A stretch of 64,000 nt of DNA. It comes from Bacilli bacterium (GTDB lineage: Bacteria; Bacillota_I; Bacilli_A; RF39; UBA660). The notes below the pieces were generated by a model, which did not search any database, was not told where the DNA came from, and was given only the letters and a program-made list of their open reading frames with translations. The stretch covers positions 205,591 to 269,590 of the forward strand of contig JAFQQQ010000002.1 in NCBI GenBank assembly GCA_017410525.1, read 5' to 3'. The position numbers were made by a program, and so were the translations under genes. Of the stretch, positions 1,943 to 39,989 are shown piece after piece; the first letter of the stretch is position 1, and the number at the start of each line of letters is the position of its first letter.

Positions 1943-3559
1943 ATGAGAGAAGTATATATATTTGGACATAAAAAGCCTGATACAGATTCAGTAACTTCAG
2001 CTATAGCCTTATCTTATTTGAAAAATCAGATAGGTATTAAATCTAAACCTGTGGTATTAGGAGATATAAATAAAGAGACTCATTTTGTGTTAAAATATTT
2101 TAATATAGAAAAACCAGAATACTTAGAAGATGTTAAACTACAAATAAAAGATTTAAATTATTATAAAGATTGTTACGTAAGTAAGTTTGACTCGATTAGA
2201 AAAACATATGACTATATGGGAAGCAAAAATATTACGGGTGTTCCTATTGTAGATAATGAAAAAAAGTTTATAGGTCTTCTAACTTCTAAAATGATTGGTT
2301 CCGAATTAATAAATGGTAATTTTACTAAATTAAATACATCCTATGATAATATTTTGGATGTGCTTAAAGGGGAAGAAATTCTAAGATTTGATGACGAAAT
2401 AAGTGGTAATATATTAGCTGCTTCTTTTAGAAGTACAACTATTTTAAATACAGTAGAATTTAGAAAAGATACAATAATGATTATAGGAGATAGGCATAGC
2501 GTTATAGAAGCTGCGGTTAATAGTTATATAAAATTGTTAGTAATAGTAGGTAATTTAGAAATAAAAGAAGAACACTTATCTATTGCTAGACAAAATAAGG
2601 TAAATATTATAAGAACTCATTTTGATACATTTCATACAGCTAAATTGATAGGTTTATCTAATTATGTAGATAATTTACTTACTGATACTAGAACTATTAG
2701 TTTTAACGAAAATGATTACTATGATGATTTTAAAGATAAAAGTGTAAAATTAGGGCACAATAACTATCCAGTAATAGATGATAGTGGAATATGTTTAGGA
2801 CTTATAAGAATTACTGATATTAAAAATATGAATAGAAAACAAGTAATACTTGTAGATCATAATGAGGCTGTTCAAAGTATTGATGGGCTTGATGAAGCAG
2901 AAATATTAGAAATAATAGATCACCACAATATTAGTTCATTAACAACTAAGATGCCAATCAATTTTAGAAATATGACAGTAGGTAGTACTAATACAATTAT
3001 TTATTCGATATTTAATGAAAGTAATATAAATATTCCAAGTGACATTGCTGGTATTATGTTAAGTGGTATTATTTCTGATACATTAAAGTTTACTAGCCCA
3101 ACAACTACTGAATATGATAAATATGTAGCTTATAGACTTGCAGATATTGCTCAAATTAACATAGATGTATATTCTAATAAAATGTTTAAAGCGGGAACTG
3201 ATTTAAAGGGAAAAACAATTCAAGAAATTATTCAAGGGGATATGAAAATATATGAATCTAATAATGAAAGAATTGCTATATCACAAGTAATAACTTTAAA
3301 TTCAGAAGATATATTAGAAAAACGAGAAGAATATATTAAGAAAATAAATGAGATGAAAGAAAATAGAGGTTACGATATAATGGTAGTATGTGTAACTGAT
3401 ATAATTAAGGACGGTTCATATATATTCTTTGATGAATCAAGTAAAAGTGAGATCGCTAACGCGTTTGGATTTGAAGAAATAGAACAAGGTTATTTTTTCT
3501 CAAAATGTTTATCTAGAAAAAAACAATTAGCGCCCCTAATTATGAGTGTAGTAAAATAG
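1943..3559 (+). CDS. CBS-domain-containing family II (DHH/DHHA2) inorganic pyrophosphatase
   Basis: GHKKPDTDSV at the N-terminus, DHNE and DHH motifs, a long CBS-like insertion, and a C-terminal DHHA2-like region. 538 aa fits the CBS-PPase subfamily. Confidence 0.8.
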   Translation: MREVYIFGHKKPDTDSVTSAIALSYLKNQIGIKSKPVVLGDINKETHFVLKYFNIEKPEYLEDVKLQIKDLNYYKDCYVSKFDSIRKTYDYMGSKNITGVPIVDNEKKFIGLLTSKMIGSELINGNFTKLNTSYDNILDVLKGEEILRFDDEISGNILAASFRSTTILNTVEFRKDTIMIIGDRHSVIEAAVNSYIKLLVIVGNLEIKEEHLSIARQNKVNIIRTHFDTFHTAKLIGLSNYVDNLLTDTRTISFNENDYYDDFKDKSVKLGHNNYPVIDDSGICLGLIRITDIKNMNRKQVILVDHNEAVQSIDGLDEAEILEIIDHHNISSLTTKMPINFRNMTVGSTNTIIYSIFNESNINIPSDIAGIMLSGIISDTLKFTSPTTTEYDKYVAYRLADIAQINIDVYSNKMFKAGTDLKGKTIQEIIQGDMKIYESNNERIAISQVITLNSEDILEKREEYIKKINEMKENRGYDIMVVCVTDIIKDGSYIFFDESSKSEIANAFGFEEIEQGYFFSKCLSRKKQLAPLIMSVVK

Positions 3560-9630: not shown

Positions 9631-10149
9631 ATGTATATTATTTCTGATGATATAAAACTTTCAGTATTAGAAGATAAGGAAGAAAATTATAAGTTATTAG
9701 AAAAATGGTGTAATAGAGAAGAAATATATAAACATTTCGAGCAAAGAATTTTAAAATATGATGAAATAGTTAATAAATATAAACCAAGGTGTAATATAAA
9801 TGCAGAAGTTCCTGTTTATATGATATATTATAAAAATAAAAAGATAGGGATTATTCAATATAAAAATATAAAGTCCAATACTTATGAATTTGATATTTTT
9901 ATTGGTGAAGTCAATCTGCACAGTAAAGGTTTGGGAGAAAAAGTAATAAAACTTATAACTAATTATTTGATTGATAATAAAGGCGCCGAAACATTCTTGC
10001 TTTGTCCGTTAAAAGAAAACGAGAAGGCTATAAAATGTTATAAAAAATGTGGATATAAAATAGTGAAAGAATATAAAGATTTTAATACGATTGGTGAAGA
10101 GAAAGAATATGTTATGATGGAGTATAATTATGAAAACAATTCTTTATAA
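9631..10149 (+). CDS. GNAT N-acetyltransferase (resembles the AAC(6')-like subgroup)
   Basis: FIGEVNLHSKGLGEKV acetyl-CoA loop and a KCGYK tail. The subgroup assignment is from memory only. Confidence 0.6.
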   Translation: MYIISDDIKLSVLEDKEENYKLLEKWCNREEIYKHFEQRILKYDEIVNKYKPRCNINAEVPVYMIYYKNKKIGIIQYKNIKSNTYEFDIFIGEVNLHSKGLGEKVIKLITNYLIDNKGAETFLLCPLKENEKAIKCYKKCGYKIVKEYKDFNTIGEEKEYVMMEYNYENNSL

Positions 10150-13436: not shown

Positions 13437-14075
13437 ATGAAAGTAATTGAGTTGGAAGAAAAATATATTTTAGAATATATAAAATATATGATTTCTAGTT
13501 TTAAAACAATACCTATAGAAATAAATAATGCTAAATATCATCATAATACAAGTTATTCTGATGTACCTTTGGTTTTAAAACAAGGTATTTTGTCGGTGTC
13601 AGAATTAAATAGATTAGGTATAAAAAAATATTCTCCTGAAATATTAAATTTATGGAGTGACATAGAGTCACATATTAATGGTATAGATTCAATATCATTA
13701 TCTGTAGTTGGTTTAAAAGATTTATATGTAGATGAATTTGAATATGATCCGTTTATACCAACAAAAGTAGATTTGAATATTTCAAGTGATATATCTACAC
13801 TAAGATCAAGTATACATTATGGAAATGAATTTTTATGTTATGAAAATATAGGAATTGATAAAATAAAATCAATTGATATAAGATTACTAGAATTAATTGA
13901 AAAAAGAAAAGATTTTACAATAAAAGATATAATAAATAAATATAATTGTTTAAAGGATGTTGCATTAGCAATTAAAGAAAATAACTTAGATATTCCTTTT
14001 AGAGAAATGTCTAATGATAATTGTGCATTAGATATAACTAAAGTGTCAGAGATGCCTAAATTAATTTTAAAATAA
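13437..14075 (+). CDS. Hypothetical protein
   Basis: 212-aa ORF with a GGAGGGAG RBS. Terminator CAAATGAAA/TTTCATTTG plus T-run lies just after the stop. No family recognised. Confidence 0.55.
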   Translation: MKVIELEEKYILEYIKYMISSFKTIPIEINNAKYHHNTSYSDVPLVLKQGILSVSELNRLGIKKYSPEILNLWSDIESHINGIDSISLSVVGLKDLYVDEFEYDPFIPTKVDLNISSDISTLRSSIHYGNEFLCYENIGIDKIKSIDIRLLELIEKRKDFTIKDIINKYNCLKDVALAIKENNLDIPFREMSNDNCALDITKVSEMPKLILK

Positions 14076-14147
14076 AGCAAATGAAAAAATTTCATTTGTT
14101 TTTTTAAAATATTTATATATAATAGAGATAGAAAAAAGGTGATTTAA

Positions 14148-14324
14148 ATGATATATATAGTAAGACATGGACAGACGGATTATAATGTAGAAGGTAGATA
14201 TGGTGGTAGGATAGGTGTAGAATTAAATATTAAAGGAATTGGGCAATCACATATCATTCATAATGAATTAAAGAATATAAAGTTTGATAATGAAAAACTA
14301 AAAGAATTACAAAAATATATATAA
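14148..14324 (+). pseudogene. Truncated histidine-phosphatase (PGAM/CobC-like) gene remnant
   Basis: My translation is MIYIVRHGQTDYNVEGRYGGRIGVELNIKGIGQSH..., which carries the RHG catalytic motif. It stops after 58 codons, whereas family members run about 190-210 aa. A start-less reading frame follows to 14503. Confidence 0.6.
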
Positions 14325-14522
14325 TAGTTCATGACAATATTGATTTTGACTCTTATTTTTCAAGTTATATATTATCTAAAATACTTCAAAGTTTAAACAC
14401 AAATGCTATTTTTACTATTTTTGATGATTATAATATTGGTGATGATGATAGAAAAATAATAGATGGTTATAAAAAAGAAAAAAATAGAATTAAACAAAAA
14501 TAGAAAAAAATGTAAAAAGGTG

Positions 14523-14551
14523 TTGACAAACAAAAAAAATTAGAGTATTAT
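14523..14551 (+). promoter_or_regulatory. Sigma-A-type promoter of the leader and RSH operon
   Basis: TTGACA (14523-14528), 17-nt spacer, TATTAT (14546-14551). Confidence 0.6.
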
Positions 14552-14593
14552 TTAATGTAATATTTTTATCTTTTTAGACAAAGGAGGAATATT

Positions 14594-14740
14594 ATGGTTA
14601 ATTGCTTTAACATAGAAAGATCAGTGATAAAATCAAAATCTAATGTTATTTGCAACAGCTTCTGCTGCAATACTTTAGTATGCTTTTCAATTCTTTCTTG
14701 TCTAAATGAAAAGATGAAAAGCGATATAGCAAAGTCTTAA
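14594..14740 (+). CDS. Small Cys-rich ORF (48 aa, 6 Cys) within the operon leader; either a RiPP-type precursor or an attenuation leader peptide
   Basis: My translation is MVNCFNIERSVIKSKSNVICNSFCCNTLVCFSILSCLNEKMKSDIAKS. A strong RBS AAAGGAGGAATATT precedes the ATG. The TAA stop (14738-14740) lies in the apical loop of the terminator hairpin. Below the size cutoff of the supplied track. Confidence 0.55.
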   Translation: MVNCFNIERSVIKSKSNVICNSFCCNTLVCFSILSCLNEKMKSDIAKS

Positions 14741-14772
14741 TGACTTTTCTTGTCGCCTTTCATCTTTTTTCT
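14709..14772 (+). terminator. Intrinsic terminator / attenuator between the leader ORF and the RSH gene
   Basis: Outer stem AAGATGAAAAGCGA (14711-14724) pairs with TCGCCTTTCATCTT (14753-14766): 13 bp plus 1 mismatch. Inner stem AAAGTC/GACTTT spans 14731-14747. A TTTTTTCTT run follows. The competing pairing is GCTTTTCA (14682-14689) with TGAAAAGC (14715-14722). Confidence 0.7.
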
Positions 14773-14803
14773 TATAAAAATATAAAAGGAAAAGGAGGGA
14801 TTT

Positions 14804-16237
14804 ATGATAACTATTGAAAAATTATTAAATCATGTAAATACTTATAATCCTGGAGAAGAAGAAATTATAAGAAAAGCTTATGAGTATGCTGATTATTTAC
14901 ATGGAAATCAAATTAGACAAAGTGGAGAACCATATATTACACATCCTTTGAATGTTGCTTATATTTTATCTGAAATGCATGCAGATAGAGATACAATATG
15001 TGCTGCACTCTTACACGATACTCTAGAAGATACAAATACAACTAAAGAAGAAATAGCTGATTTATTTAATAAAGAAATAGCTAACTTAGTAGACGGAGTA
15101 ACAAAGATAAGTAAAATGAATTTTTCTAGTAAAGCAGAACAAAATTTAGCAAACACAAGAAAAATCATAACAGGGCTTACAGAAGATGTAAGAATAATAA
15201 TAATAAAATTAGCCGATAGACTTCATAACATGAGAACTTTAGAATTTAAATCTGAATTTAAGCAAAAAGAAAATTCTTTAGAAACAATGGAAATATTTGT
15301 ACCGCTTGCTTATTATATAGGTGCTTATAGAATAAAAAGTGAGCTAGAAGATATATCTTTTAAATATTTAAAACCAGATAAATATAAAGAAATAGAACAT
15401 AGAATAAATAACTCTAGTATTGAAAATAATAATTGCTTAAATGAAATGTTATTGAATATAGAAGAAATATTAAATAATGAGTCAATACCACATGAAATAA
15501 AAGTTAGAACAAAAAATATATATGGAATATATAAAAGAATAGATAATGGAGAAAACAAAATAAGTGATATACACGATTTATTATCTTTAAAAATAATGGT
15601 AGATGATATAAAAAATTGTTATATAACACTAGGTCTTATACATGATAAATATCATCCAATAAATGGAAGATTTAAAGATTATATTTGTAATCCTAAAACA
15701 AATCTATATAAATCTTTACATTCTACAGTATTTGGGCCTAATGAAAAATTAGTACAAACACAAATAAGAACATTTGATATGGATAAAATAGCATCCTTTG
15801 GTTTAACAGCATATTGGGATATAAATAAAGGTGATGCAAGATATACTATGCAACAAGATTTAAGAGATAATTTTCAATTTTTTAAATCATTATCAGATAT
15901 AAATGTTATGTTTAAGGATAATCAAGATTTTGTATCTCAAATAAAGAATGAATTATTCGCAAATAAAATTTATGTGTATACTACTAACGGTAAAATAATA
16001 GAATTACCTAAAGGATCAAATATTATTGATTTAGCTTGTTATATGGACATAGAAAATGTATTAATAGGAGCTAAAGTAAATGATGAAATAGTTCCTATTG
16101 ATTATATTTTAAAAAATAAAGATAGGGTAATACCACTTATAGATGAATTATCTTATGGATATAGAGAAAGTTGGATAGAAAAAGCGAATACAGTTTATGC
16201 TAAAAAGAAAATAAAGGGGTTAATAGAGAGTAGGTAA
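14804..16237 (+). CDS. RelA/SpoT homologue: HD hydrolase + RelA/SpoT-type domain + TGS, lacking the usual C-terminal regulatory domains
   Basis: HD region: YITHPLNVA...LLHDTLEDT...ADRLHNMRT. Synthetase-like region: RTKNIYGIYKRI...RFKDYICNPKTNLYKSLHST...VQTQIRTFDM...ASFGLTAYW. TGS-like region: IYVYTTNGKIIELPKGSNIIDLACYM. It is 477 aa, against about 730 aa for typical long Rel proteins. Confidence 0.8.
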   Translation: MITIEKLLNHVNTYNPGEEEIIRKAYEYADYLHGNQIRQSGEPYITHPLNVAYILSEMHADRDTICAALLHDTLEDTNTTKEEIADLFNKEIANLVDGVTKISKMNFSSKAEQNLANTRKIITGLTEDVRIIIIKLADRLHNMRTLEFKSEFKQKENSLETMEIFVPLAYYIGAYRIKSELEDISFKYLKPDKYKEIEHRINNSSIENNNCLNEMLLNIEEILNNESIPHEIKVRTKNIYGIYKRIDNGENKISDIHDLLSLKIMVDDIKNCYITLGLIHDKYHPINGRFKDYICNPKTNLYKSLHSTVFGPNEKLVQTQIRTFDMDKIASFGLTAYWDINKGDARYTMQQDLRDNFQFFKSLSDINVMFKDNQDFVSQIKNELFANKIYVYTTNGKIIELPKGSNIIDLACYMDIENVLIGAKVNDEIVPIDYILKNKDRVIPLIDELSYGYRESWIEKANTVYAKKKIKGLIESR

Positions 16238-16240
16238 AAA

Positions 16241-17401
16241 ATGTTATTTAGATTAGTTGCAATTCGTTGTCATAAAAATATAATTTTCTGTGACAGTTTT
16301 AATGAAAACTTTGAAAAAATACAATTAGCAATTCCATCAGAACTTTTCAACTCATTAGGACTTAAAGTAGGTAGTGTAATTTCTACAAATTATCAAATTA
16401 CTAAAAATAAATATGGAAATGATTTGTATTTCATAAATGATGTACAAAATGTATCAAATCATAATAAAAATATATCTTTTAAATCTATAAATACAAAATT
16501 ATCATCCATGAATCAATCTAGTTTTATTAGTGCATTAAATGGTGGAGTTAATTTAAAATATTGGGAAATGAAACAAAAACTTTTAGAAGAAATTAGAAAA
16601 TTTTTAGTAAATAGAAGTTACATAGAAGTAAATACTTCATTGTTAATGGATAATAGAGGTACTAGTACTGTTAACCCTATGCAAGTAAATGGTAAATACT
16701 GTGGTAATAAATATTTAAAAATAACTCATGAATTAGAATTAAAAAAAATTTGTTATCTTACTTTAAAATCATTATTTGAGATAGGATATGTAACAAGAGA
16801 TGTATATTCTACTAGTAAATCTGCTAATCAATATTTAACATTTGAATTAGTTGCACCTATAGAAGATACATTAACAGCAGAAGAATTATATATTTATGTT
16901 TATGAGATTGCAATTAAGTTGGCTGAATCATATGGTATTTCTTATAATGAGATATTTAATAAAATAGAAACAGTGGATGTTTTAAAATTATATTTATCAA
17001 ATCATAAAAAGATTGATAAGAAAGAATTCCTTGAGTTTTATAAAAAACTATTAGAATTAGAAAAAAATATAATATATGTAAATGCGCCTACCAATACTCC
17101 TTTAGCGAAAGAATCAGAATACGGAATACCTTTAGAAACAAAATGGGCTATAGGAAATAGGGGTATAGGTCATGGATATTATGATCAAAATCAGTTATCG
17201 GTTATAGAAAATTTATTTGAATTACAAAAAGATGCACTAAAAGAAAAAGGGATAGATTCCAGTGTTGATAAAGAATACTTAATGACTTTAATGTATGCAG
17301 GTATAGATACAAAAAGTTTAAATATAGGGATTGATAGATTTATGTATAAATTTTTAGGTTTAGATCACGAAGAGAAAGCAATAAAAATATTAGGATTATA
17401 G
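16241..17401 (+). CDS. Divergent class IIb aminoacyl-tRNA-synthetase paralogue (Asp/Asn/Lys-RS-like: OB fold plus a compact catalytic core)
   Basis: N-terminal OB-fold-like pattern (LFRLVAIRCHKNIIFCDS...KIQLAI...GSVISTNYQI). Motif 1-like IRKFLVNRSYIEVNTSLL. Degenerate motif 2, GYVTRDVYSTSKSANQYLTFELVAP. Motif 3, LNIGIDRFMYKFLGL. Confidence 0.6.
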   Translation: MLFRLVAIRCHKNIIFCDSFNENFEKIQLAIPSELFNSLGLKVGSVISTNYQITKNKYGNDLYFINDVQNVSNHNKNISFKSINTKLSSMNQSSFISALNGGVNLKYWEMKQKLLEEIRKFLVNRSYIEVNTSLLMDNRGTSTVNPMQVNGKYCGNKYLKITHELELKKICYLTLKSLFEIGYVTRDVYSTSKSANQYLTFELVAPIEDTLTAEELYIYVYEIAIKLAESYGISYNEIFNKIETVDVLKLYLSNHKKIDKKEFLEFYKKLLELEKNIIYVNAPTNTPLAKESEYGIPLETKWAIGNRGIGHGYYDQNQLSVIENLFELQKDALKEKGIDSSVDKEYLMTLMYAGIDTKSLNIGIDRFMYKFLGLDHEEKAIKILGL

Positions 17402-17411
17402 AGGTGAACAA

Positions 17412-18671
17412 ATGAAAGAAGATAAAATATTATTTTTGTATCCGCCGACAGTTTATGCTAACCATAGTATGTTTAAGCATTTTACTTATTTTGGCGAAAC
17501 GATAGATGTTATAAGTAGATATTATAAAAATATAAAAGTTTTAGACTGTGCAGTTGAACAAATAGAACAAAAGATAATATTTAATAATTTTAAAGATAGT
17601 AATTTATTAGTAATGGAAATAGAACCTTATAACATAGATGTTGCACTATCTTTAGGAAAATTATATAAATCATTCAACAGTAAAGGAAAAATTATAGTAT
17701 ATGGTACTGCAATTACAATAATGCCCAATTATTTTATGAAACAACATTTATTTGATTATATAATTAATGATGGTAATTTTGCTGTTGGTATATTGGGGGT
17801 AATGAATGAAATTTTAAATACAGAATATCCTTATGAAGTTAAGAGTAAATATTATGAATTAATAAATGGTGAGTATATAATGAAGGGTGATAATTTTCAA
17901 CTTCCAATAAAAGATTGGGGTGTTGGATATAATAAATTATTACCATTAGAAAAATATAAATTTTATAATAATGGTATGTTTGAATTAACTGTTCAAACCG
18001 GTTGCCCTTTTAATTGTTCTTTTTGTTCTGAAAAAATATTATTTGATAAGTATTGTGGAACAAAATATAGAGATGTTGAAGATATTATTAAAATAATGAA
18101 AAATATTAATGACGATTTTAATGAAATATATTTTTCTGCTACAACAATGACAGCAAATAGAAAATGGACTGAAAATTTATGTACTAGATTAATTGAAGAA
18201 GGTAATAAAATGCCTTGGAGAACAGTTACTAGAATTGATTGTGTTGATGAAGAATTGTTAAAATTAATGAAAAAATCAGGATTAAAGAAAATTTGTTTTG
18301 GTGTTGAAACGTTTGATGATAAATTATTAGAAGAGATAAATAAAAAACAAAATGCAAATAATGTAATTAATATATTAAAATTATGCAATAAATTAGGTAT
18401 TAAAGCCAAAGCTTTACTTATGTTGGGTATACCAGGACAAACAGCAAAAAATGTTTTTGATACAGTGAAAATATTAAAAGATTTAAATGTGGAATATAGA
18501 TTTAAAGAATATTCTCCTATTCGTGAAGCACATATATTAGATTCTAAAAATTCTGATATCTCTGATATGATTCCTATTTTTAGTAGATATGAATATAGAA
18601 CAAGTAGTATTCCTGGAATAACTAGTGAAGAATATATGGAATTACTTTTTCCTACAGAATATGTGAGGTAG
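17412..18671 (+). CDS. Radical SAM enzyme with an N-terminal B12-binding-like domain (class B type)
   Basis: CPFNCSFC (CxxxCxxC) at about residue 198, preceded by a Rossmann-like ~150-aa domain (ILFLYPP...LLVMEIEP...IIVYGTA). Confidence 0.75.
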   Translation: MKEDKILFLYPPTVYANHSMFKHFTYFGETIDVISRYYKNIKVLDCAVEQIEQKIIFNNFKDSNLLVMEIEPYNIDVALSLGKLYKSFNSKGKIIVYGTAITIMPNYFMKQHLFDYIINDGNFAVGILGVMNEILNTEYPYEVKSKYYELINGEYIMKGDNFQLPIKDWGVGYNKLLPLEKYKFYNNGMFELTVQTGCPFNCSFCSEKILFDKYCGTKYRDVEDIIKIMKNINDDFNEIYFSATTMTANRKWTENLCTRLIEEGNKMPWRTVTRIDCVDEELLKLMKKSGLKKICFGVETFDDKLLEEINKKQNANNVINILKLCNKLGIKAKALLMLGIPGQTAKNVFDTVKILKDLNVEYRFKEYSPIREAHILDSKNSDISDMIPIFSRYEYRTSSIPGITSEEYMELLFPTEYVR

Positions 18672-18678
18672 ATTAGCA

Positions 18679-19707
18679 ATGATTGAACATTTAAAAAGTG
18701 GTTTGTCAATATCGACACATTTAGGTTGTGGATTAAAGTGCTCGTATTGTATTTTGTCAACCATGGACGGTTTTAATGAGGGCCCGGTATTACAAATTAA
18801 ACCCAAGGATTTAATATTTAAATTATTTAATGAATATGAATTTTATTGCAAAAATAAAACACCTTTAATGTTAAATAATAGAACAGATCCATTTTTACCA
18901 ACTGTAACACCGTATACTTTAGAAATTTTAGATTTATTAATTGAAAAGCAAGTCGAGTCTCCAATTATAATAATTTCAAAGTTTGCGCCGCCTACAGTTT
19001 TAAAAAAATATTTTTCTTTATTAAATATTTGTTACTTTTATTCTTATTCTGGTATAGATACTGATTTTAACTATAATAAACTTAAAAGTGATTTACAACT
19101 AATAAAAAATGTTGTTCCTAGGTCTTCTAGATTTCATTATTTTAGACCGATAATACCAGGAGTGAACGATGATTTTGAATTTATGAAAAAAATATTAAAT
19201 ATATTTAGTGAAAATGAATTTGATGCCACTGTAATTGCTGGATTTAGGGTAACTAATCTAAATAAACATTTAATAAAAAAGGAAACGATAGATGTTGAAA
19301 AAATTGATTATAATCATAAATTAGTAGATAGTAGTATATATGAAATAAATAAAATATTTAATGCCGAAAATTATCGTATATTTAGACATACTAGTTGTGC
19401 TATAGCAAACCATTTTAATTCTTTTAACAAATTAAATTATTTTTCAAAATGTGGTCATTGCTTTGAATCATGTCCTAACTATGACAACTGTTTAAATAAA
19501 AGAATAAATATTAAAGATATTTTAAAAGAACTTAAAGAAAAATTTGGTAATGAATATAATTTTAAAATTAAAGATAACAAAATTGAAATATTGTCTTTAT
19601 GTACTCAAGAATTAGTTGCTTATATAAAAAATGCTTATGGGTGTGAGATTATTGCAACCAATGTTAAATTATCAAAATCTGAAGAGGTGATTTTAGGTGA
19701 AAAATAA
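18679..19707 (+). CDS. Radical SAM enzyme (compact, with a C-terminal Cys cluster)
   Basis: GCGLKCSYC near the N-terminus. A later cluster, CAIANH...CGHCFESCPNYDNC, could hold an auxiliary Fe-S cluster. Confidence 0.65.
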   Translation: MIEHLKSGLSISTHLGCGLKCSYCILSTMDGFNEGPVLQIKPKDLIFKLFNEYEFYCKNKTPLMLNNRTDPFLPTVTPYTLEILDLLIEKQVESPIIIISKFAPPTVLKKYFSLLNICYFYSYSGIDTDFNYNKLKSDLQLIKNVVPRSSRFHYFRPIIPGVNDDFEFMKKILNIFSENEFDATVIAGFRVTNLNKHLIKKETIDVEKIDYNHKLVDSSIYEINKIFNAENYRIFRHTSCAIANHFNSFNKLNYFSKCGHCFESCPNYDNCLNKRINIKDILKELKEKFGNEYNFKIKDNKIEILSLCTQELVAYIKNAYGCEIIATNVKLSKSEEVILGEK

Positions 19708-20248
19708 TATTATAGTGGGATGCGATTTACATAATACTTTGTTATTAAGCAATGAAGCTTGGATAAAAGCATTTATAAGTCTTAATTCTAAATTGGATAT
19801 AAATGAAATTTCTAATTTTATATATAGTAAAAAATCAAGAAAAGAAATGGCTAGATTATATAATATTGATTATAATGTATTATTAAATACTTATCATAAA
19901 AATTGTATTCCTAATATAAAATTATTAAATTTTATTAAAGAACTTAAAGTTAAAGGGTTTCCTATTGTTTTAATTTCTTCATCAAGCGAAGAAAAAGTAA
20001 AAAAAGATTTAGAGAAACTAAAAGAATATATTTCTTTTGATAAAATTTATACAAAAGAAACATTTTCTAAAAGTGTTTCTAAAGATTGGGATATGGTTAT
20101 AAAAGAATATAGAGCAAAATTTATGGTATATATAGGAAATGACTATGATGAAGATATAATACATAATGATAAAGTAATATCTATTCTTTCAGGACATTTT
20201 TTTACAGAATTGAAAAAAAACGGTTTTTTAGAAGAAAGAGGTAAATAA
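19697..20248 (+). CDS. HAD-superfamily protein with variant motif I
   Basis: GCDLHNTL (DxH instead of DxD), LISSSS (motif II), GNDYDEDI (motif IV). GTG start overlaps the upstream gene by 11 nt. Confidence 0.55.
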   Translation: MKNNIIVGCDLHNTLLLSNEAWIKAFISLNSKLDINEISNFIYSKKSRKEMARLYNIDYNVLLNTYHKNCIPNIKLLNFIKELKVKGFPIVLISSSSEEKVKKDLEKLKEYISFDKIYTKETFSKSVSKDWDMVIKEYRAKFMVYIGNDYDEDIIHNDKVISILSGHFFTELKKNGFLEERGK

Positions 20249-20250
20249 AA

Positions 20251-21168
20251 ATGGAAATATATTTAAAAAAAGAAGATATAGAAAGTTATCTAATAAATCA
20301 GGAAGAAAATATAAAAAACATGATTGATAATTTAGATTCAAGTTGGCCACATTATAATGCAGTGAAAAAATTATTAGAAGAGACTATGTTAGAAATAAAA
20401 AGAAAAGATATACATTGTAATGCTGTTTTATCTTCTACTAAGCATGAACGAAAAATAGAAAAATATGTAAATTGGGTTGAGGTTTATAGACTAGCAAATT
20501 ATCATTTTTCAAAATATACTAGTAGTAATACTTCTTATAGTGAAGGATTGTTTTCAACATTACTTGCGTTAAATAGTATGTATATACATAATAAAAAAAT
20601 TAAGGATATTGGAATAATTGGTTGTGGTCCAGGAAGAAGCGTTTTAGATTTTTCTTTAGCTTATCCAGATGCCACTATTTATGGTTTAGATTATTCCTTA
20701 GTTTCCTTAGTTTTAGCAAGAAATATTGTTAGTACAAATAATAAAAATATTGAGATTATAAGAAGAGATGATGAAGTAGTATTAGATAAAGTTGAAAGCT
20801 TTAATAGGACAAATTGTAAATGGGGAATGTTTGATTTAACTAAATCTAATTTAAATGAAAAATTTGATATCGTAGTATGTTCAAATGTAATAAATTTAAT
20901 GCCTAATCATAAAGATGCTATAAATAAAATTTATGATATGATAAAACCTAATGGATATTTAATATATGCTGATTTAACTGGTTGGAGATTAGATAGAAAG
21001 AAAGAACAACAATTACTTTCTGATAAAAAAGCTATAAAAAATAGTTTTGAAAACGTAGGCTTTGAAACTATAGAATGTTTTGATGGTGGACCATATATAG
21101 AAAAAGAAAATAAAGATAATTTCACGTTTTATAAACAAACTTATTATATAGGAAGGAAGGTAAAATGA
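20251..21168 (+). CDS. Class I SAM-dependent methyltransferase
   Basis: IGIIGCGPGRSVLDF (motif I), GLDYS, VVCSNVINLM. Confidence 0.75.
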   Translation: MEIYLKKEDIESYLINQEENIKNMIDNLDSSWPHYNAVKKLLEETMLEIKRKDIHCNAVLSSTKHERKIEKYVNWVEVYRLANYHFSKYTSSNTSYSEGLFSTLLALNSMYIHNKKIKDIGIIGCGPGRSVLDFSLAYPDATIYGLDYSLVSLVLARNIVSTNNKNIEIIRRDDEVVLDKVESFNRTNCKWGMFDLTKSNLNEKFDIVVCSNVINLMPNHKDAINKIYDMIKPNGYLIYADLTGWRLDRKKEQQLLSDKKAIKNSFENVGFETIECFDGGPYIEKENKDNFTFYKQTYYIGRKVK

Positions 21169-21824
21169 AAAATATAATATTATTAAGTGGACCTGATAAA
21201 ACAAAATATTTTGCTAAGGAAATATCAAAAGAAATAAAAAATAACGTTACGCATCCAACAAATATGGTTGTAATACCGGCTGATCCAAATAATTATGAAA
21301 AAAATGATAAACAATTTAAAGGGAATGAAAGTGTAGTTGGAGTATTTAAAACATTTAAAAAAATATTTCCAGATATAAATATTGTTTTGTTAGATAATAG
21401 AGTAGATTCTACAAGTGGATTAAACAAGTTGAAGAAAGCAGATATTATTTATCTACTTGGTGGAAATCCTTTTATTCAATTAGAATACTTGCAAAAAAAT
21501 AATTATAGTGATACAATATGCAGCACAAATGCATTGGTTATGGGAGTTAGTGCTGGATCAATGAATTTAGCTGTTGATTCTTATTATTCTAAAGATGAGG
21601 ATTATCCAGAAAGTGTAATTTATAAAGGATTAGGAATTGTTGACATGACTATAGATCCACATTTTGATATTAACAATGAAGAACAGGTTAAAGAAATAAA
21701 AGTTAATTCAAAAGATAGAAAAATTATTGGTTTACCAAATGATTCAGCAATAATTGTTTCAAATAATAATATAAAATATATTGGTGATATTTATTTATTT
21801 GAAAATGGTGAATTAACTAATTAA
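21165..21824 (+). CDS. Peptidase S51 (dipeptidase E / cyanophycinase-like) family protein
   Basis: LLGGNPF, GVSAGSMN (nucleophile Ser context), DPHF. ATGA overlap with the methyltransferase gene. Confidence 0.6.
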   Translation: MKNIILLSGPDKTKYFAKEISKEIKNNVTHPTNMVVIPADPNNYEKNDKQFKGNESVVGVFKTFKKIFPDINIVLLDNRVDSTSGLNKLKKADIIYLLGGNPFIQLEYLQKNNYSDTICSTNALVMGVSAGSMNLAVDSYYSKDEDYPESVIYKGLGIVDMTIDPHFDINNEEQVKEIKVNSKDRKIIGLPNDSAIIVSNNNIKYIGDIYLFENGELTN

Positions 21825-21855: not shown

Positions 21856-23433
21856 ATGAATTGGGCATTAGAAGAAGCAAAAAAATTAGTTGAAAAGCAT
21901 CCTGAAAAGGAAGAATTTGTAATCGCATCGGGGGTTAGTCCATCTGGATTTATACACATAGGAAATTTTAGAGAAATCGTTACTACATTTTTTGTAGGTA
22001 AAGAATTAGAAAATTTAGGGAAAAAAGTTAGATTTATATTATCGTTTGATGATTTTGATAGATTTAGAAAAGTTCCTAAAGGAATGCCGGAAAGTTATAG
22101 TAAGTATATAGGAATGCCTTATACTAGTATACCTAGTCCATTTAGTGAAAATAAAACTTATGCTAAAGAAATGGAAGATATATTTGTAAGTGAATTAAAT
22201 AGACTAGGAATTAATCCTGAAACCATATCTCAAACAGAACAATATAAAAGTGGAAGATATGATGATAAAATTAAATTAGCTATGGAACAAAGAAAAAAAA
22301 TATTTGATATAATGGCTAATTATAAAACTCAAGAATTTACAGAAGAAGATAGAAATAATTATTATCCTATAAGTTTATATTGTGAAGAATGTGGTAAAGA
22401 TTCAACAACTATATTAAATTATAATGATGTAACAGGTGATGTAGAATATAAATGTACTTGTGGGCATCATCATATTCAAAATATAAATAAATGTGGTAAT
22501 ATAAAGTTACAATGGAAAATTGATTGGCCAATGAGATGGCAAAAAGAAGGGGTAATTTTTGAACCAGGTGGTAGAGATCATTCTGCAGAAAATGGAAGTT
22601 ATGCTGTATCAAAAGAAATATCTAAACGAATTTTTGAATATGAAGCACCATCCTATGTAGCCTATGATTTTATTGGTATTAAAGGCGCTAATGGTAAAAT
22701 GGCTTCATCAACAGGAAATGTTTTAACATTAACTGATTTATTAAGTGTTTATGATAAAAATATAATATTATGGTTTTATGCCAAAAATAGACCTAATCAT
22801 CAATTTAATATAGCGCTTGATGAAGATGTATTAAGATTCTATACAGAATATGATAGGATGGTAAAAGCATATTTTGAAGGTAAATTAGATGATAAAAATT
22901 CTAGTATTATATCATTAACAGGAGTAACTAGTGGGTATGTTAATAATCCTAATTTTGGATATATAGCAAACTTTTTACCGATGGTAAGTTATAAAGAAGA
23001 AGCACTTGCAAAATTATTAAGTAAAGAAAATATTGATTGTTCTACATTATATTTTAAAAATAGATTACTAAGAGCAACCAATTGGTTAGAAAAATATAAT
23101 AATAGTAAAATAAAAGTGTTAGATGAATTTAATCAAGAATATTATGAAACATTAAGTGATGAAGAAAAAGAATGGTTAGAAAAAACTTTAGTTGTTTTAC
23201 AAAATGAATATGAAACTACTCAGGATTTACAAACAGATTTATATGCTATTGTAAAAAATGGTATAGAAGATTCTAAAGAATTAAAAAATAAACAAAGAAG
23301 ATATTTTCAGATAATTTATAATTTAATTATAGGAAAAGATAATGGACCAAAAATGGGATTATTGCTATCTGCAATGGATTATGAAGTTGTAAAATCTAAA
23401 TTGCAAAAATCAAAAGAAAAAAAATTAAGATAA
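21856..23433 (+). CDS. lysK: Class I lysyl-tRNA synthetase (LysK-type)
   Basis: SGFIHIGNFREI (HIGN), GKMASSTGN (KMSKS-equivalent), Cys-rich insertion YCEECG...CTCGHHH. 525 aa. Confidence 0.8.
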   Translation: MNWALEEAKKLVEKHPEKEEFVIASGVSPSGFIHIGNFREIVTTFFVGKELENLGKKVRFILSFDDFDRFRKVPKGMPESYSKYIGMPYTSIPSPFSENKTYAKEMEDIFVSELNRLGINPETISQTEQYKSGRYDDKIKLAMEQRKKIFDIMANYKTQEFTEEDRNNYYPISLYCEECGKDSTTILNYNDVTGDVEYKCTCGHHHIQNINKCGNIKLQWKIDWPMRWQKEGVIFEPGGRDHSAENGSYAVSKEISKRIFEYEAPSYVAYDFIGIKGANGKMASSTGNVLTLTDLLSVYDKNIILWFYAKNRPNHQFNIALDEDVLRFYTEYDRMVKAYFEGKLDDKNSSIISLTGVTSGYVNNPNFGYIANFLPMVSYKEEALAKLLSKENIDCSTLYFKNRLLRATNWLEKYNNSKIKVLDEFNQEYYETLSDEEKEWLEKTLVVLQNEYETTQDLQTDLYAIVKNGIEDSKELKNKQRRYFQIIYNLIIGKDNGPKMGLLLSAMDYEVVKSKLQKSKEKKLR

Positions 23434-24767: not shown

Positions 24768-25001
24768 ATTTGAAACATATATATTTTTTATACATAAAAA
24801 AGACTATTTCATACAAACATATTGATTTTTAACTAAAAAAATATATTATATAATTAAATATTTAATTTAGATAAACATTTAGTTTATCTTTTTTATTATT
24901 TTTTAACACATTTTTGTTGAAATGAGTTGTTGGAATGTGCTAAAATATATTTGTAATTAAAGATATGTTGCAGATTATTAAATCGATTGGGGGAAACGAT
25001 T

Positions 25002-26807
25002 ATGGAAAATAAAAAATTTGTTTTTGATAAGGAAGGCAGTAAAAAAATTACGGGATTTGCTTCTATAGATAAACCTTGGAATAGATTTTATAGAAAAGAA
25101 CCTATTAGAGAAATTAAGTTAAATCAAACTATTTATGATATGGTATTTGGTGAAAACATTAATAATATGGATGACGATGCTCTGGGATATTTAGGAGTTA
25201 GCTTAACTTTCAATCAATTAAAAGCTAAAGTTGACCAATTTGCAGATGCGTTACTTAAATCTGGTTTAAATAGCGGTGACGTAGTTTTAATGGGGGTTTC
25301 TAATTCTCCTGAATCTATCATAGCATTATTAGCATTAAATAAAATTGGTGTAGTTTCTAAGTGGTTTGATATTAGAGCAAGTGAAAAAGATATAGAAACA
25401 TATGCAAAATCAAGTAATTGTAATTATATGATTGCATTCGATATGTTAATACCTAAAATAGAAAAAACATTATCGAATGTGGATTTTAATAAAATAATAA
25501 TAATAAATCCAACAGATTCTTTACCAAAAATTAAACAAGAATTATATAAACTTCAATGTAAGAAAAATGGAACATATGTAAAAATGCCTTCGGATAAGAG
25601 ATTTGTTAGGTTTAATAATTTTATGAAATTAGGAAGCAATAATTCAAAATTAGAAAGTGTCCAATTTGATGCCACAAAACCTTCAATTATGATACAATCA
25701 AGTGGTACTACGGGTAAACCAAAAACTATAGTTCATTCTGATTCTTCTTGTGTTAATTGTACTCATAAAATGGCTTATACAGATTTACCGTTAGGTAGAG
25801 GTAAAAAGATGTTAGTAGCTTTACCGCCTTGGATTGCATATGGATTAGGTAATGCCATAATAATGCCTTTATCATATGGAACTAAGGTAGAACTTAGCCC
25901 TAATTTTGATCCTAATGCTGTATTAAAAAATATAGGTAAGTTTACTATTTCTTTTGCAGCTCCATTTCATTATCGTTATTTAAAAGAACATTTTTCAGAA
26001 TTAACTGAAAAGCAAAAAGAAGCTTTTAAAATGGTTGAATGCTTAGCGTCTGGTGGAGACAAAATGTCTATAGAAGAAAATAACGATTTTGAGAAGACCT
26101 TTGGCGTTGTACTTATAAATGGTTATGGTAACAATGAAGGTTGGGGGGTATTAACTGTAAATCCTACACTTCATAATAAATATGGTACAGTTGGTATACC
26201 TAAATTTGGCGATTTAGTAATCAGTTATGATACTGACAATGAAAAAGAAAATGCATATGGTGAGTGGGGAGAAATATGCTCATTAACTGATACTTCAATG
26301 TTGTATTACGAAGATAATTTAGAAGAAACTAAAAAAACTTTACAAACTCATCCAGATGGTAAAGTTTGGATACATACTGGAGATTTAGGTTTTATAGATG
26401 AAGATGGTTTTATTCATTTAGGTGGAAGAGCTAGACGAGTTATTGTAAGGCTAGGATTTAAAATATCTGCATATACAATAGAAGATAAATTATCTGAACA
26501 TCCAGCAGTAAAAGAATGTGTTGCGGTTTCTGTAAAAGATGCTGAAGAAGAACATGTTCCAATGGTATACATAATTTTAAAAGACGAGTATAAAGCATTA
26601 TCTGATACAATAGAAAATGATATATATGTAAAATTGTCACAAGAATTAAAAGAATATGAAATACCAAAATATTTTAGAATTGTTGATAGTTTACCATATA
26701 CTCAAAATGGTAAATATGATTTTGTTTCTTTAGAAAAATATGGTAACGAATATGTTGATAGTTTAGATTCAAACGATAAAATATTTAAAAAGAAAATAGG
26801 TGATTAA
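25002..26807 (+). CDS. AMP-dependent acyl-CoA/acyl-adenylate ligase (ANL superfamily)
   Basis: QSSGTTGKPK AMP-binding motif, GYGNNE, TGDLGFIDEDGF, and GK near the C-terminus. ATG at 25002 preferred (GGGGGAA RBS). Confidence 0.85.
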   Translation: MENKKFVFDKEGSKKITGFASIDKPWNRFYRKEPIREIKLNQTIYDMVFGENINNMDDDALGYLGVSLTFNQLKAKVDQFADALLKSGLNSGDVVLMGVSNSPESIIALLALNKIGVVSKWFDIRASEKDIETYAKSSNCNYMIAFDMLIPKIEKTLSNVDFNKIIIINPTDSLPKIKQELYKLQCKKNGTYVKMPSDKRFVRFNNFMKLGSNNSKLESVQFDATKPSIMIQSSGTTGKPKTIVHSDSSCVNCTHKMAYTDLPLGRGKKMLVALPPWIAYGLGNAIIMPLSYGTKVELSPNFDPNAVLKNIGKFTISFAAPFHYRYLKEHFSELTEKQKEAFKMVECLASGGDKMSIEENNDFEKTFGVVLINGYGNNEGWGVLTVNPTLHNKYGTVGIPKFGDLVISYDTDNEKENAYGEWGEICSLTDTSMLYYEDNLEETKKTLQTHPDGKVWIHTGDLGFIDEDGFIHLGGRARRVIVRLGFKISAYTIEDKLSEHPAVKECVAVSVKDAEEEHVPMVYIILKDEYKALSDTIENDIYVKLSQELKEYEIPKYFRIVDSLPYTQNGKYDFVSLEKYGNEYVDSLDSNDKIFKKKIGD

Positions 26808-26862
26808 ATCTATTTTCTTTTTTGTCGTTTTATGATATACTGAAATCATAGGAGGGTAAGAA

Positions 26863-29082
26863 ATGTTGTTTGGTAATATAAATAATACAATGCTATTTTC
26901 TTTGATTTCAGTTTTTTACATGATTTGCTTTGCAATTGGATTTTTTGCTCGTAAAAAAGTTAAATCTGTAGAATTAACGATATTTAAAGGTCTAATTTTA
27001 ACTAATTTAATTTCGTTGATAGTAGAAATATTATTAGTAATATTGATTTTAAATAATAGTAATTTTTTAAATATAATGTTAAGATTTTTTAATGTGTGTA
27101 TTTTTTCATATGTTTGGTTTTTCGGACTCTATAGTTATTTTGTTTTAAAAAGAAGTAAGGAACTTAATTCTAAAAGCTCTTTATTCGTTCTTTATTTAAT
27201 ATATTATTTTGTCTGTTGTATTGGAATGATGATTTCAAAAGTTGAATTGAATCCTGTAGATTTTATGCAATATTCAAAGGGGCCTAGTGTTCAAGTTTTA
27301 TTTATCGCAGTTGGAATGATTGTAATGGTAACAATTATGATGCTTTTAATAAATATAAAAAATATAAAGAAAATAAAATGCACTCCAATAATTATGTTCG
27401 TTTTGTTTATTGGTATAAATGCCATAATTCAATTTATATGGCCTCACATTTTATTGGCTAATTCTTTATTCAGTTTTGTTACATTTTTAATGTACTTTAC
27501 AATAGAAAATCCAGATATAAAGATGGTAAACCAATTAGAACTCGCTAAAGATCAAGCAGAAAAAGCAAACAATGCTAAAACTGATTTCTTAAGTAATATG
27601 TCTCATGAAATAAGAACTCCATTAAATGCTATAGTAGGATTTAGTCAATGTATAGAAAATGCTACTAACTTAGAAGAAGCAAAAGAAGATGCTAAAGATA
27701 TAGTAATGGCTTCTAATAACTTACTTGATATAGTAAATGGTATACTTGATATAAGTAAGATTGAAGCAGATAAGATGGAAATAGTTAATACTGAATATAA
27801 CCTAAAAGAAATATTAGATAATTTAGTAAAACTTATTATACCTAGAATAGGTGAAAAAGATATTGAATTAAAAACTCATTTTGCTGAAGATTTACCAGAG
27901 GTATTATATGGAGATAGTGGTAAAGTAAAACAAATTATTACTAATGTTTTAACTAATGCTGCTAAATATACTGAACAAGGTGAAATTAACTTTAAGGTTA
28001 ATTGTGTTAACGAAAAAGATAAATGCAGATTAGTTATATCTATAAGAGATACTGGTAGAGGTATTAAAACTGAACAAATAGATAAATTATTTAATAAGTT
28101 CCAAAGACTTGATGAAGACAAAAATACAACTACTGAAGGTACTGGACTTGGACTTGCTATTACTAAGAGACTTGTTGAAATGATGGGTGGTAAAATAGTA
28201 GTTCAAAGTGAATATGGAGAAGGTTCTACTTTTACAATTTATTTAACTCAAGAAATAAGAAATGGTTTATATAAAAAAGAAGAAGTTATAGAAGAAGAAA
28301 TAAGTTTTGATAGTAAAAAAGTATTATTAGTAGATGATAATAAATTAAATATTAAAGTAGGTACTAAAATATTAAGAGAATATAATCTAGATATAACACC
28401 TTGTGAAAGCGGATTTGAATGTATAAACAAAATAGAAAATGATAATAATTATGACATTATACTTTTGGATATTATGATGCCTAAAATGAGTGGTGTTGAA
28501 ACTTTAAAAAGATTAAAACAAATAGATGGTTTTGATACTCCTGTAATAGCACTTACAGCAGATGCTATTCAAGGCAGAGAAAATAAATATTTAGAAGTAG
28601 GATTTAGTGGTTATTTATCTAAACCTATTGAACATAGTGAACTAAAAAAGGTATTATCTAAATATTTAATAAGTGTTAAAAAAGAAGAAATTGAAATATT
28701 TGATGAAATCAAAAAAGATAAAAAAGATATTGATTATTTAAAAGAAAGTGGTATTGATGTAGATAGTAGTTTAGAACTTTTAGGAGATATGGAAACATAT
28801 AATGAAACTTTAAAAGATTTCTTAACTGAATGTGAAACAAGACTTCCTAAAATGAAAGAACACTTATCTAATAATGATTCAAATAATTATGCAATACTTA
28901 GCCATGCTTTAAAGAGTGATAGTAAATATTTAGGTTTTAAAAAACTTGCTGAACTATCTTTAGATCATGAATTAAAAGGTAAAGAAAATGATTTAGAATA
29001 TATTAAAGAAAATTCTAACGAACTTATGGATGAAGCAGAAAAAATAATAAATATTATTAAAAATTATTTAGGAGATGAATAA
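26863..29082 (+). CDS. Hybrid sensor histidine kinase (multi-TM sensor, HisKA, HATPase, REC, HPt)
   Basis: About 6-7 N-terminal TM helices. H-box [11 protein letters not shown] boxes ([20 protein letters not shown]). REC (LLVDDN...[11 protein letters not shown]...K). HPt-like [12 protein letters not shown]. Confidence 0.85.
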
Positions 29083-29461
29083 TATGGAAAAAGCAATTAT
29101 AGTAGCTGATGATTCTATGATAGTTAAAAATATCGTAGAAAAGGCAATTGATGATGAATATATGGTTTTAAAAGCATCAAATGGTAAAGAAGCAATAAAA
29201 CATATTACTGATAAAAAATATGAAATAATTGGAATGTTACTTGATTTAAATATGCCAGAAAGTGATGGATTTATGGTATTAAATTATTTCAAAAACAATA
29301 ATTTATTTAAAAAATATCCAATTGTTATAATATCTGGAGATGATACAAAAGAAACTATAGAAAAAGCTTTTACATACGATATAGTTGATATGCTTAATAA
29401 ACCATTTTCTAAAGATAATGTTAATAGTATGGTTAATAAAATTATTAATTTTAAAAGCTAA
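29075..29461 (+). CDS. Single-domain response regulator (CheY-like REC)
   Basis: [24 protein letters not shown]...NKP. Overlaps the kinase gene by 8 nt. Confidence 0.8.
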
Positions 29462-33663: not shown

Positions 33664-33734
33664 AAGTAGTTTTTACTGCTTTTTTTGTGCATTTTTACTA
33701 AACTCTTTCATATATTAAATTGAGGAGTGATTAT

Positions 33735-39912: not shown

Positions 39913-39989
<77 letters not shown>

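Follow-up and report, generated by a model that had tools for sequence, protein, structure and literature searches.

What is the function of a RelA/SpoT homologue (RSH) that ends just after its TGS domain and carries a glutamine where the catalytic glutamate of the synthetase is expected? The question was raised by a gene located at 14804..16237 on the plus strand of a 64,000-nucleotide stretch from a Bacilli bacterium (contig JAFQQQ010000002.1, positions 205,591 to 269,590; hereafter the window), a bacterial chromosome segment of 24% GC with nearly all genes on the plus strand. The gene encodes 477 aa comprising an HD hydrolase domain, a pseudo-synthetase domain and a TGS domain, without the helical, zinc-finger (RIS) and ACT (RRM) domains. 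Based on comparative sequence analysis, we propose with moderate confidence that the product is a dedicated, ribosome-independent (p)ppGpp pyrophosphohydrolase, a paralogue of the full-length Rel of the lineage, placed behind a cysteine-leader/terminator control. (p)ppGpp turnover governs growth arrest, persistence and sporulation, and its switching-off is less understood than its switching-on.

The truncation was examined first at the level of domains. Pfam identified HD_4 at residues 25-170 (E = 9.5e-41), RelA_SpoT at 235-339 (2.3e-28) and TGS at 389-442 (1.2e-9) of the 477-aa protein, in the HD, nucleotidyltransferase, TGS order of the long-RSH superfamily. No Pfam domain was found beyond TGS: RelA_AH, RelA_RIS and ACT_4, which long Rels of the same clade carry, were all without a match, and the C-terminal domains of that superfamily are thus missing. 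The C-terminus (residue 477) lies about 35 aa past the TGS domain. The NCBIfam model TIGR00691 (spoT_relA) was barely passed, with 502.6 bits against a cut-off of 499.2, and only profile positions 1-449 of 687 were matched. The next open reading frame (ORF) begins at 16241, four bases past the RSH stop, and encodes an unrelated, degenerate protein resembling class-II lysyl-tRNA synthetase (LysRS), indicating that the truncation is real and that no remnant of the C-terminal domains follows the gene. A preliminary description of this DNA, with an alignment made by eye, had reported a 477-aa protein ending soon after TGS and lacking the helical, zinc-finger and ACT/RRM regions, and both Pfam and the ORF map agree with it. 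With three domains, the protein also differs from the small alarmone hydrolases (Mesh1/SAH), which consist of one stand-alone HD domain.

The synthetase domain (15503..15820, plus strand, aa 234-339) is degenerate, with V234, N238, K263, Q318, S331 and Y337 at positions of interest. Residues 2-473 were mapped by phmmer alignment onto residues 7-480 of Bacillus subtilis Rel (PDB 6yxa, in which the numbering is native and equals that of RelSeq), and a second, pairwise alignment with RelA of E. coli K-12 (from NC_000913) gave the same result. Gln318 (codon CAA, 15755-15757) occupies the position of the catalytic Glu (RelSeq E323, B. subtilis E324, RelA E335). Tyr337, Ser331, Lys263 and Val234 stand at B. 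subtilis H343, E337, R269 and G240, which are RelA H354, E348, R280 and G251, respectively. The domain retains R235-x-K237, D258, Y302 and H306 (the last three being D264, Y308 and H312 in Rel numbering). Consequently, of the two synthetase carboxylates of a bifunctional Rel (D264 and E323/E324), the Asp is kept as D258 and the Glu is replaced by Gln318, and the residues equivalent to RelA G251, R280 and H354 are V234, K263 and Y337. The residues and motifs that the preliminary description had picked out were all correct on alignment to Rel and RelA; in particular, it had read the QTQIRT strand as a substitution of the catalytic Glu, which neither alignment restored, and the ATP-binding R-x-K as retained.

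According to a passage of PMC13299517 citing Hogg et al. 2004, RelSeq E323Q and D264G abolished synthetase activity, which bears out the earlier statement that this Glu is catalytic for synthesis. A passage of PMC4154780 citing Gropp et al. 2001 likewise states that RelA G251E kills synthesis and that H354Y lowers it. Taken with these mutants of E323, G251 and H354, at least three independent positions relevant to synthesis are substituted in the short RSH.

The substitutions are shared by a whole clade. The best 120 database homologues (71-94% identity, 438-493 aa), which came from human, primate, rabbit, ruminant and mouse gut assemblies and carry names such as 'Mycoplasma sp. CAG:611' and 'Clostridium sp. 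CAG:710', all have Gln in the Q-x-Q-I-R-T strand. A HMMER search of 50%-identity cluster representatives added 44 further short sequences without the Glu, down to about 37% identity, together with canonical Rels of 680-800 aa. Neighbour-joining of 169 sequences grouped the 58 that lack the Glu, without exception short proteins, in one pure clade. Gln or Lys was present at the catalytic-Glu site in 55 of 63 sequences of at most 515 aa, against Glu in 90 of 90 long forms; the five Glu-bearing short sequences grouped among the long forms, mostly on short contigs, and look like fragments. The sequence thus places the short RSH in a large clade that is monophyletic; its members have 470-495 aa and come from uncultured low-GC Bacilli of the gut. 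Since all 120 closest homologues have Gln and the clade is pure, Gln318 is not due to chance or a sequencing error. The possibility that the gene is a decaying pseudogene was ruled out by the invariant HD site and by a length conserved across more than 150 clusters. The public names of the short form, 'GTP pyrophosphokinase' and '(p)ppGpp synthetase I', are probably wrong. Plasmid and phage collections contained no short form; their matches were only chromosomal full-length Rels, either mislabelled or at about 40% identity. Two contigs carry the gene twice: in CAKOXW010000001.1 the copies (L024 and L045 among our related loci) lie 31 kb apart with 96.7% identity, and in CATYVZ010000006.1 the copies (L040 and L053) lie about 55 kb apart with 86.7% identity.

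The hydrolase domain showed the opposite pattern to the synthetase domain. In the HD domain (14876..15313, plus strand, aa 25-170) the Arg, H47, H71-D72, E75-D76, D138, N142 and T145 are all present, corresponding to the complete set R44, H53, H77, D78, E81, D82, D144 and N148 in Rel numbering, and the catalytic residues were intact in 62 of 62 gap-free short-form sequences. Every catalytic HD residue was confirmed at the codon level, as expected from the earlier claim that the hydrolase motifs are intact. Conservation was compared on 50%-identity cluster representatives (44 short and 85 long). Mean pairwise identity of the HD domain was 0.50 in short forms vs 0.52 in long forms, with 21 of 23 Rel-invariant sites retained. 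The corresponding values were 0.34 vs 0.46 for the synthetase domain (16 of 30 sites retained) and 0.34 vs 0.54 for TGS (2 of 9). The lost Rel-invariant synthetase sites include K251, R269, E324, Q326, R328, E337, H343, Y346 and K347; G240, near-invariant in long forms (74 of 85), is also replaced. Because the lost sites include those whose mutation abolishes or lowers synthesis (E323Q, G251E, H354Y), these data point to a protein that probably only hydrolyses alarmone. The suggestion of the preliminary description, a hydrolase-only or re-purposed RSH, is thus supported by the sequence.

The HD domain might instead act on another substrate, such as NADPH (as MESH1 does) or (p)ppApp, or the protein might be mainly a non-enzymatic regulator. 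HD-type alarmone hydrolases can be promiscuous, in keeping with PDB matches that include MESH1 and a (p)ppApp hydrolase, and the loss of regulatory domains leaves room for a new role. However, all Rel-type HD residues, including those binding ppGpp, are invariant in the clade, and the predicted fold fits the Rel N-terminal domains with a root-mean-square deviation (rmsd) of 1.5 Å; we regard a changed substrate or a regulator without activity as highly improbable.

The degenerate synthetase site nevertheless appears to be under constraint. Q324, K269 and N244 (Rel numbering) are 80-84% conserved within the short clade and essentially missing from the long forms. Among the nucleotide-binding sites of the short clade, R241 was kept in 70%, K243 in 89%, D264 in 94% and Y308 and H312 in 98% each, and K304 was kept as well. 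The conservation of Q324, K269 and N244 fits, and argues for, a maintained pseudo-active site, suggesting constraint rather than random decay. The same residues can be read differently, namely that the protein is still a synthetase, weak or altered (making pGpp or (p)ppApp, or using Gln/Lys with another metal arrangement), and that a classical Cys leader induces this ribosome-independent alarmone synthetase on starvation. Many nucleotide-binding residues are retained, and the substitutions are conservative and conserved. On the other side, none of the 85-120 long Rels examined deviates from the Glu, the Gln mutant of RelSeq is synthetase-dead in the cited passage of PMC13299517, Gly240, Arg269 and His343 are lost as well, and the conservation of the whole synthetase domain is relaxed. 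Overall, we consider a remaining synthetase activity quite unlikely.

For the TGS domain (15968..16129, plus strand, aa 389-442), the preliminary description had proposed a retained sensor of the tRNA CCA end. The His of this domain (B. subtilis H420, RelA H432) stacks on the tRNA 3'-CCA, and its mutation abolishes tRNA-dependent activation (PMC7797070). This His is present in 89 of 90 long forms vs 36% of short forms, and the window protein has Tyr instead, adjacent to a 2-residue deletion, with Gly424 changed to Glu. The protein thus lacks the CCA-stacking His of a bifunctional Rel, and the proposal of a CCA sensor is not supported. In the same work (PMC7797070), B. subtilis Rel without the zinc-finger domain and RRM showed increased hydrolysis and impaired synthesis, and the bare N-terminal domains hardly hydrolysed. 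The truncation data make a natural protein of HD, synthetase and TGS domains plausible as a constitutive hydrolase, and the poor hydrolysis by the bare N-terminal domains would explain why a degenerate TGS has been retained.

An AlphaFold2 (AF2) model of the short RSH, built with 49 sequences, had a predicted local distance difference test score (pLDDT) of 83 and a predicted template modelling (TM) score of 0.74. The catalytic half of the model superposed best on S. aureus Rel with pppGpp (7oiw; TM 0.96, rmsd 1.5 Å). The superposition is compatible with a closed, hydrolase-type conformation, for which it provides weak evidence; the truncation data on B. subtilis Rel are the stronger support.

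A protein that only hydrolyses would need a synthetase elsewhere in the cell. In three related loci (L037, L039 and L049), a 724-aa Rel with the E-x-Q-I-R-T strand is encoded 3-7 kb upstream of the short gene on the same contig (L037 4655-6829, L049 2891-5065 and L039 1326-3500). On a fourth contig, k141_1079883 (80.5 kb, metagenome), a short form 86% identical to the window protein lies about 29 kb from a 719-aa Rel that has RelA_AH, RelA_RIS and ACT_4 and stands in the classical Firmicute rel-dtd-...-hisS-aspS context. A search with the long form returned at least 120 clusters with an identity of 72% or higher, and in these clade long Rels G240, R269, E324, H343 and H420 were each present in 120 of 120 sequences. 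They are 47-50% identical to the short protein, compared with at most 44% for other long Rels, indicating a duplication within the lineage. From their sequences and from the four related contigs with both genes, the short form is thus a paralogue of the full-length Rel, and we infer that a long Rel also resides in the genome from which the window derives. The HDxxED motif was altered in all three of the long Rels of L037, L039 and L049. Altogether, 10 of the 120 clade long Rels carry an altered motif (HDTMKE, HDTMEE, HDTIEE, HDTIEC, HDTIEV or HDTIEL), which hints that some lineages are losing the hydrolase of the long Rel in a RelA-like subfunctionalisation.

The preliminary description had allowed that the short protein might be the sole, housekeeping Rel of the organism, in a form shared by related species. 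The short form is indeed common to related species; the claim to be the sole Rel did not hold for the four contigs that also have the full-length gene. For this reduced genome itself, the short form could still have replaced the full-length Rel: tblastn searches with the full-length query and its separate domains detected no second RSH, and hence no long Rel, in the 64-kb window, most related loci have the short form alone within 10 kb on either side, and synteny with the relative carrying both genes is broken upstream. Against this, the closest relative with a long contig, that with the 86% identical short form, has a canonical Rel 29 kb away, and clade long Rels are as abundant in metagenomes as short forms, with the cluster count given above. 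In addition, a synthetase-dead RSH alone would leave its hydrolase useless unless small alarmone synthetases exist; none was found in 0.89 Mb of related loci, a sample far too small to conclude absence. We therefore hold a solitary housekeeping role to be very unlikely.

How is the putative hydrolase gene expressed? The 730-bp gap 5' of the RSH gene contains, in order, a histidine-phosphatase remnant, a promoter, a Shine-Dalgarno sequence, a leader frame and a terminator. The sigma-70-type promoter (14523..14551, plus strand; TTGACA, 17 nt, TATTAT) matches 11 of 12 positions and was the best match in 14000-16400. The leader frame (14594..14740, plus strand) has 48 codons, six of them for Cys (MVNCFNIERSVIKSKSNVICNSFCCNTLVCFSILSCLNEKMKSDIAKS), and is preceded by a strong Shine-Dalgarno sequence, AAAGGAGGA. 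A predicted intrinsic terminator (14708..14777, plus strand) follows, consisting of a hairpin with 27-bp arms (14708-14769) and a U-run; its RNA fold had an energy of -28.2 kcal/mol (z = -7.0 vs shuffles). The UAA stop of the leader (14738-14740) lies within the hairpin loop. Only 35 nt separate the terminator from the RSH start codon, leaving no room for a separate RSH promoter.

The window leader is conserved in L056, L057 and L001, and the layout of Shine-Dalgarno sequence, frame of 25-48 codons and terminator was found in 35 of 48 related loci, likewise with a promoter upstream. The leader stop codon fell in the 5' arm of the hairpin in 25 of these 35 loci, in the loop in 6 and directly before the hairpin in 4, and the terminator ended 15-35 nt from the RSH start across leader-bearing loci. 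In control intergenic regions of the same loci the layout occurred in 4 of 109; a fifth apparent hit was excluded as it belongs to another short-RSH gene. Cys made up 7.2% of leader residues, six times the background of 1.2% (p = 2e-33); its share in the other two frames was 2.8%. Otherwise unrelated, the peptides have their Cys residues grouped as CC or CxC within the second half, and UGC accounts for 47% of Cys codons in leaders vs 17% genome-wide. The layout was also present in deep branches, such as L063 (50% identity) and L067 (39% identity), but not in every branch. Two deep-branching short RSH genes, L069 (~3050-3273) and L066 (~9930-10000), have no leader frame; one of them has a promoter followed by a terminator hairpin without an evident frame, and the other has neither. 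The leader is old in the short-RSH family, and it is not universal.

Both copies of the gene in L024/L045 have their own Cys-rich leader and terminator, and gene and leader were evidently duplicated as a unit. A Cys-containing leader frame was also found at both copies in L040/L053, where a terminator was not confidently detected (none in L040, -0.7 kcal/mol in L053). In a scan of the 64-kb window, the leader was the only convincing Cys-rich frame with a Shine-Dalgarno sequence. A second match at 41426-41497, short and on the minus strand, was judged spurious. At gathering thresholds, Rfam found only tRNAs in the window, with no T-box and no ppGpp or PRPP riboswitch; permissive Rfam matches within the leader, to miRNA and snoRNA families, were also spurious.

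By sequence, the region has the features of a leader-peptide attenuator, namely a Shine-Dalgarno sequence, a short frame enriched in a regulatory codon and a terminator before the gene. The frame could alternatively be an independent gene for a small Cys-rich protein with its own terminator, as its strong Shine-Dalgarno sequence, the existence of small Cys-rich proteins and the lack of a detected antiterminator would allow. However, the peptide is unconserved outside the Cys cluster, 31 of 35 leaders have their stop codon within the hairpin, a separate RSH promoter would not fit, and the frame always accompanies the short RSH, including the duplicated copies, and is absent from control regions. 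An independent gene therefore appears unlikely to us, and a regulatory leader probably ties RSH expression to translation.

The direction of this control was approached by folding the transcripts with a masked ribosome. The terminator formed in 28 of 35 leaders without a ribosome and at 76 of 100 Cys-stall sites; when the ribosome was placed at the stop codon, the count fell to 4 of 35 leaders. The frame of the E. coli pyrBI leader runs into the terminator, and translation itself can prevent termination there. On the folding results, a pyrBI-like logic in which translation through the leader prevents termination is the simplest reading. A single promoter would drive a transcript of leader and RSH gene. 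A ribosome translating the leader to its end would melt the terminator and let RNA polymerase read into the RSH gene; with a ribosome stalled at Cys codons, owing to scarce Cys-tRNA or slow translation, the terminator could form. Healthy translation with charged Cys-tRNA would then allow production of the hydrolase, and starvation would hold it back.

By its sequence, the protein has lost the ribosome-binding C-terminal domains (helical, zinc-finger/RIS and ACT/RRM) and kept a catalytically complete HD domain. The synthetase domain would have become a non-catalytic pseudo-enzyme module with conserved replacements of Glu by Gln, Arg by Lys, His by Asn and His by Tyr; it may still bind nucleotide and assist the HD domain allosterically or structurally. 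What is left of the TGS domain would act as an intramolecular scaffold for the hydrolase-ON state, with no tRNA sensing, and alarmone synthesis would be left to the co-resident long Rel. Amino-acid sensing would thereby have shifted from the C-terminal domains of the protein to the leader of the mRNA.

Several observations weigh against a pseudo-enzyme hydrolase under pyrBI-like control. No general antiterminator was detected when duplexes between the leader and the 5' arm of the terminator were tested in 35 leaders (mean z 0.04; 3 of 35 below -2); the window leader itself has a candidate with a duplex z of -3.7. In about 40% of leaders, a Cys codon lies no more than 12 nt from the hairpin base, which fits classical stalling followed by read-through, and a detectable leader frame is missing in 13 of 48 loci. 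Tight coupling of transcription and translation is not the rule in B. subtilis. The conservation of Gln, Lys and Asn is equally compatible with altered rather than absent catalysis, the AF2 conformation may reflect training bias, and the window contains neither a long Rel, as noted above, nor a small alarmone synthetase.

Cys-codon leaders have been described for cysS (uORFC-8-2 in Rhodobacterales, UGC-rich; PMC8632094) and as polycysteine frames in mycobacteria (bioRxiv 10.1101/834739). Like the RSH leader, they consist of a short translated frame with clustered Cys codons followed by an intrinsic terminator, and uORFC-8-2 also over-uses UGC. These known leaders turn genes on when Cys is scarce, which, together with the Cys codon at the hairpin base in about 40% of leaders, speaks for the induction of an altered synthetase discussed above. 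The RSH leader differs from the cysS, mycobacterial and pyrBI leaders in that it controls an alarmone enzyme, has no evident antiterminator and occurs in Firmicutes. In the literature, no Cys-codon leader was found described for an alarmone enzyme. The short RSH, if placed correctly under its leader, would stand apart, as we know of no other alarmone enzyme under leader-peptide attenuation.

Several known proteins resemble the short RSH in part. Compared by published description, the closest described architecture is RshC, a second, divergent Rel copy in six strains of the B. cereus group that is cut in the helical domain, keeps TGS and is labelled [HS] (PMC3153485, Atkinson, Tenson & Hauryliuk 2011). 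Both are extra copies beside Rel in Bacilli, truncated in the helical domain with TGS retained. In contrast, the [HS] label means that both activities are predicted for RshC, whereas in the short clade the Glu, Gly, Arg and His of the synthetase are gone; RshC was reported from six Bacillus strains, and the short clade comes from low-GC Bacilli of the gut that are uncultured. In function, the hydrolase-only long RSHs are nearest, namely plant RSH1 and SpoT[Hs] of Acinetobacter baumannii and Moraxellaceae (PDB 7qpr, PMC9974481). As is proposed for the short RSH, SpoT[Hs] is a long-RSH paralogue with an active HD, a degenerate pseudo-synthetase and a separate synthetase (RelA or Rel) beside it. 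It differs in having a full, regulatory C-terminal region (TGS, helical, zinc-finger and ACT), whereas the short RSH, a Firmicute protein, has no domain beyond TGS. Canonical Rel (B. subtilis 6yxa, RelSeq 1vj7, S. aureus 7oiw) shares 37-42% identity over HD, synthetase and TGS, the fold and an identical HD site; unlike it, the short RSH lacks the catalytic Glu, other synthetase residues, the CCA-sensing His and the ribosome-binding domains. The concept of a hydrolase-only RSH is established; new here are its minimal architecture, a pseudo-active site that is conserved and the proposed control by a leader peptide. Plant RSH1 is a hydrolase-only long RSH with a full C-terminal region, in which the synthetase Gly is lost. 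The 2020 reclassification of RSH proteins gives 13 long-RSH subfamilies (PMC7229694), and the short clade may already be catalogued among them.

Taken jointly, the results could mean that gut Firmicutes independently evolved a split like that between RelA and SpoT, in which the long Rel synthesises on starved ribosomes and the truncated paralogue only hydrolyses, the Cys leader permits the hydrolase only under read-through translation, a few long Rels are losing HDxxED, and the Gln/Lys/Asn site is a nucleotide-sensing allosteric site. This combined scenario is tentative, and we consider it possible rather than probable. If true, a natural and widespread minimal hydrolase of HD, pseudo-synthetase and TGS domains would match the artificial truncations of B. 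subtilis Rel, and could reveal what elements of a long RSH the hydrolase-ON state requires and why a dead synthetase site is retained. The charging of one tRNA species would also be linked directly to alarmone degradation, in organisms that are abundant, though uncultured, in the human and animal gut.

The preliminary description had further seen a fit with a tRNA-centred gene set around the RSH gene. Downstream of it lie genes for the LysRS-like paralogue, a B12-type radical S-adenosylmethionine (SAM) protein, an unknown protein, a HAD-like protein, a methyltransferase, a PepE-like peptidase and a class-I LysRS. No conserved neighbourhood was found in 55 related loci, where the genes resembling aminoacyl-tRNA synthetases (aaRS) and the radical-SAM genes are not linked to the short RSH; since gene order is not conserved, the argument from a tRNA-centred context fails.

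Between the RSH gene and conserved AMP-binding and hybrid histidine-kinase genes (24987-29461) lies a variable island (16241-21824 in the window, 12030-16378 in L056). In the window, it encodes the 386-aa degenerate class-II LysRS-like paralogue, of which just the motif 1-2 region is recognisable, and a B12-binding radical SAM protein, an unknown 342-aa protein, a HAD-like protein, a SAM methyltransferase and a PepE-like peptidase. In the same slot, the closest relative has a PPDK_N-like protein, another radical SAM protein and a class-II aaRS (tRNA-synt_2b and HGTP_anticodon). The island may be an aaRS-like and radical-SAM biosynthetic or modification cassette. A class-I (archaeal-type) LysRS (TIGR00467, E = 2.9e-124) is encoded at 21856-23433 in this Firmicute, a few genes from the class-II LysRS-like paralogue. 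Directly after the two-component genes, a RhuM-family/Fic-domain protein (29584-30546) may be a mobile or defence-related insertion.

Upstream of the leader, 59 codons at 14148-14327 encode the N-terminal remnant of a histidine phosphatase of the phosphoglycerate-mutase family (MIYIVRHGQTDYNVEGRYGG...), probably a decayed gene. CotE is encoded in the window (33720-34265), and a relative (L058/L059, 7048-7747 and 20086-21583) has genes for a small acid-soluble spore protein (SASP), YunB, a SpoIIGA-type peptidase U4 and a sigma factor. Relatives of the carriers of sporulation genes were deposited as 'Mycoplasma sp. CAG' or 'uncultured Bacilli', with about 24% GC, and the lineage appears to be spore-forming. 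Seven tRNA genes were found in the window (39913-42792 and 50310-50385), several of which read G/C-ending or rare codons: Gln-CTG, Leu-GAG, Thr-GGT, Val-GAC and Lys-CTT.

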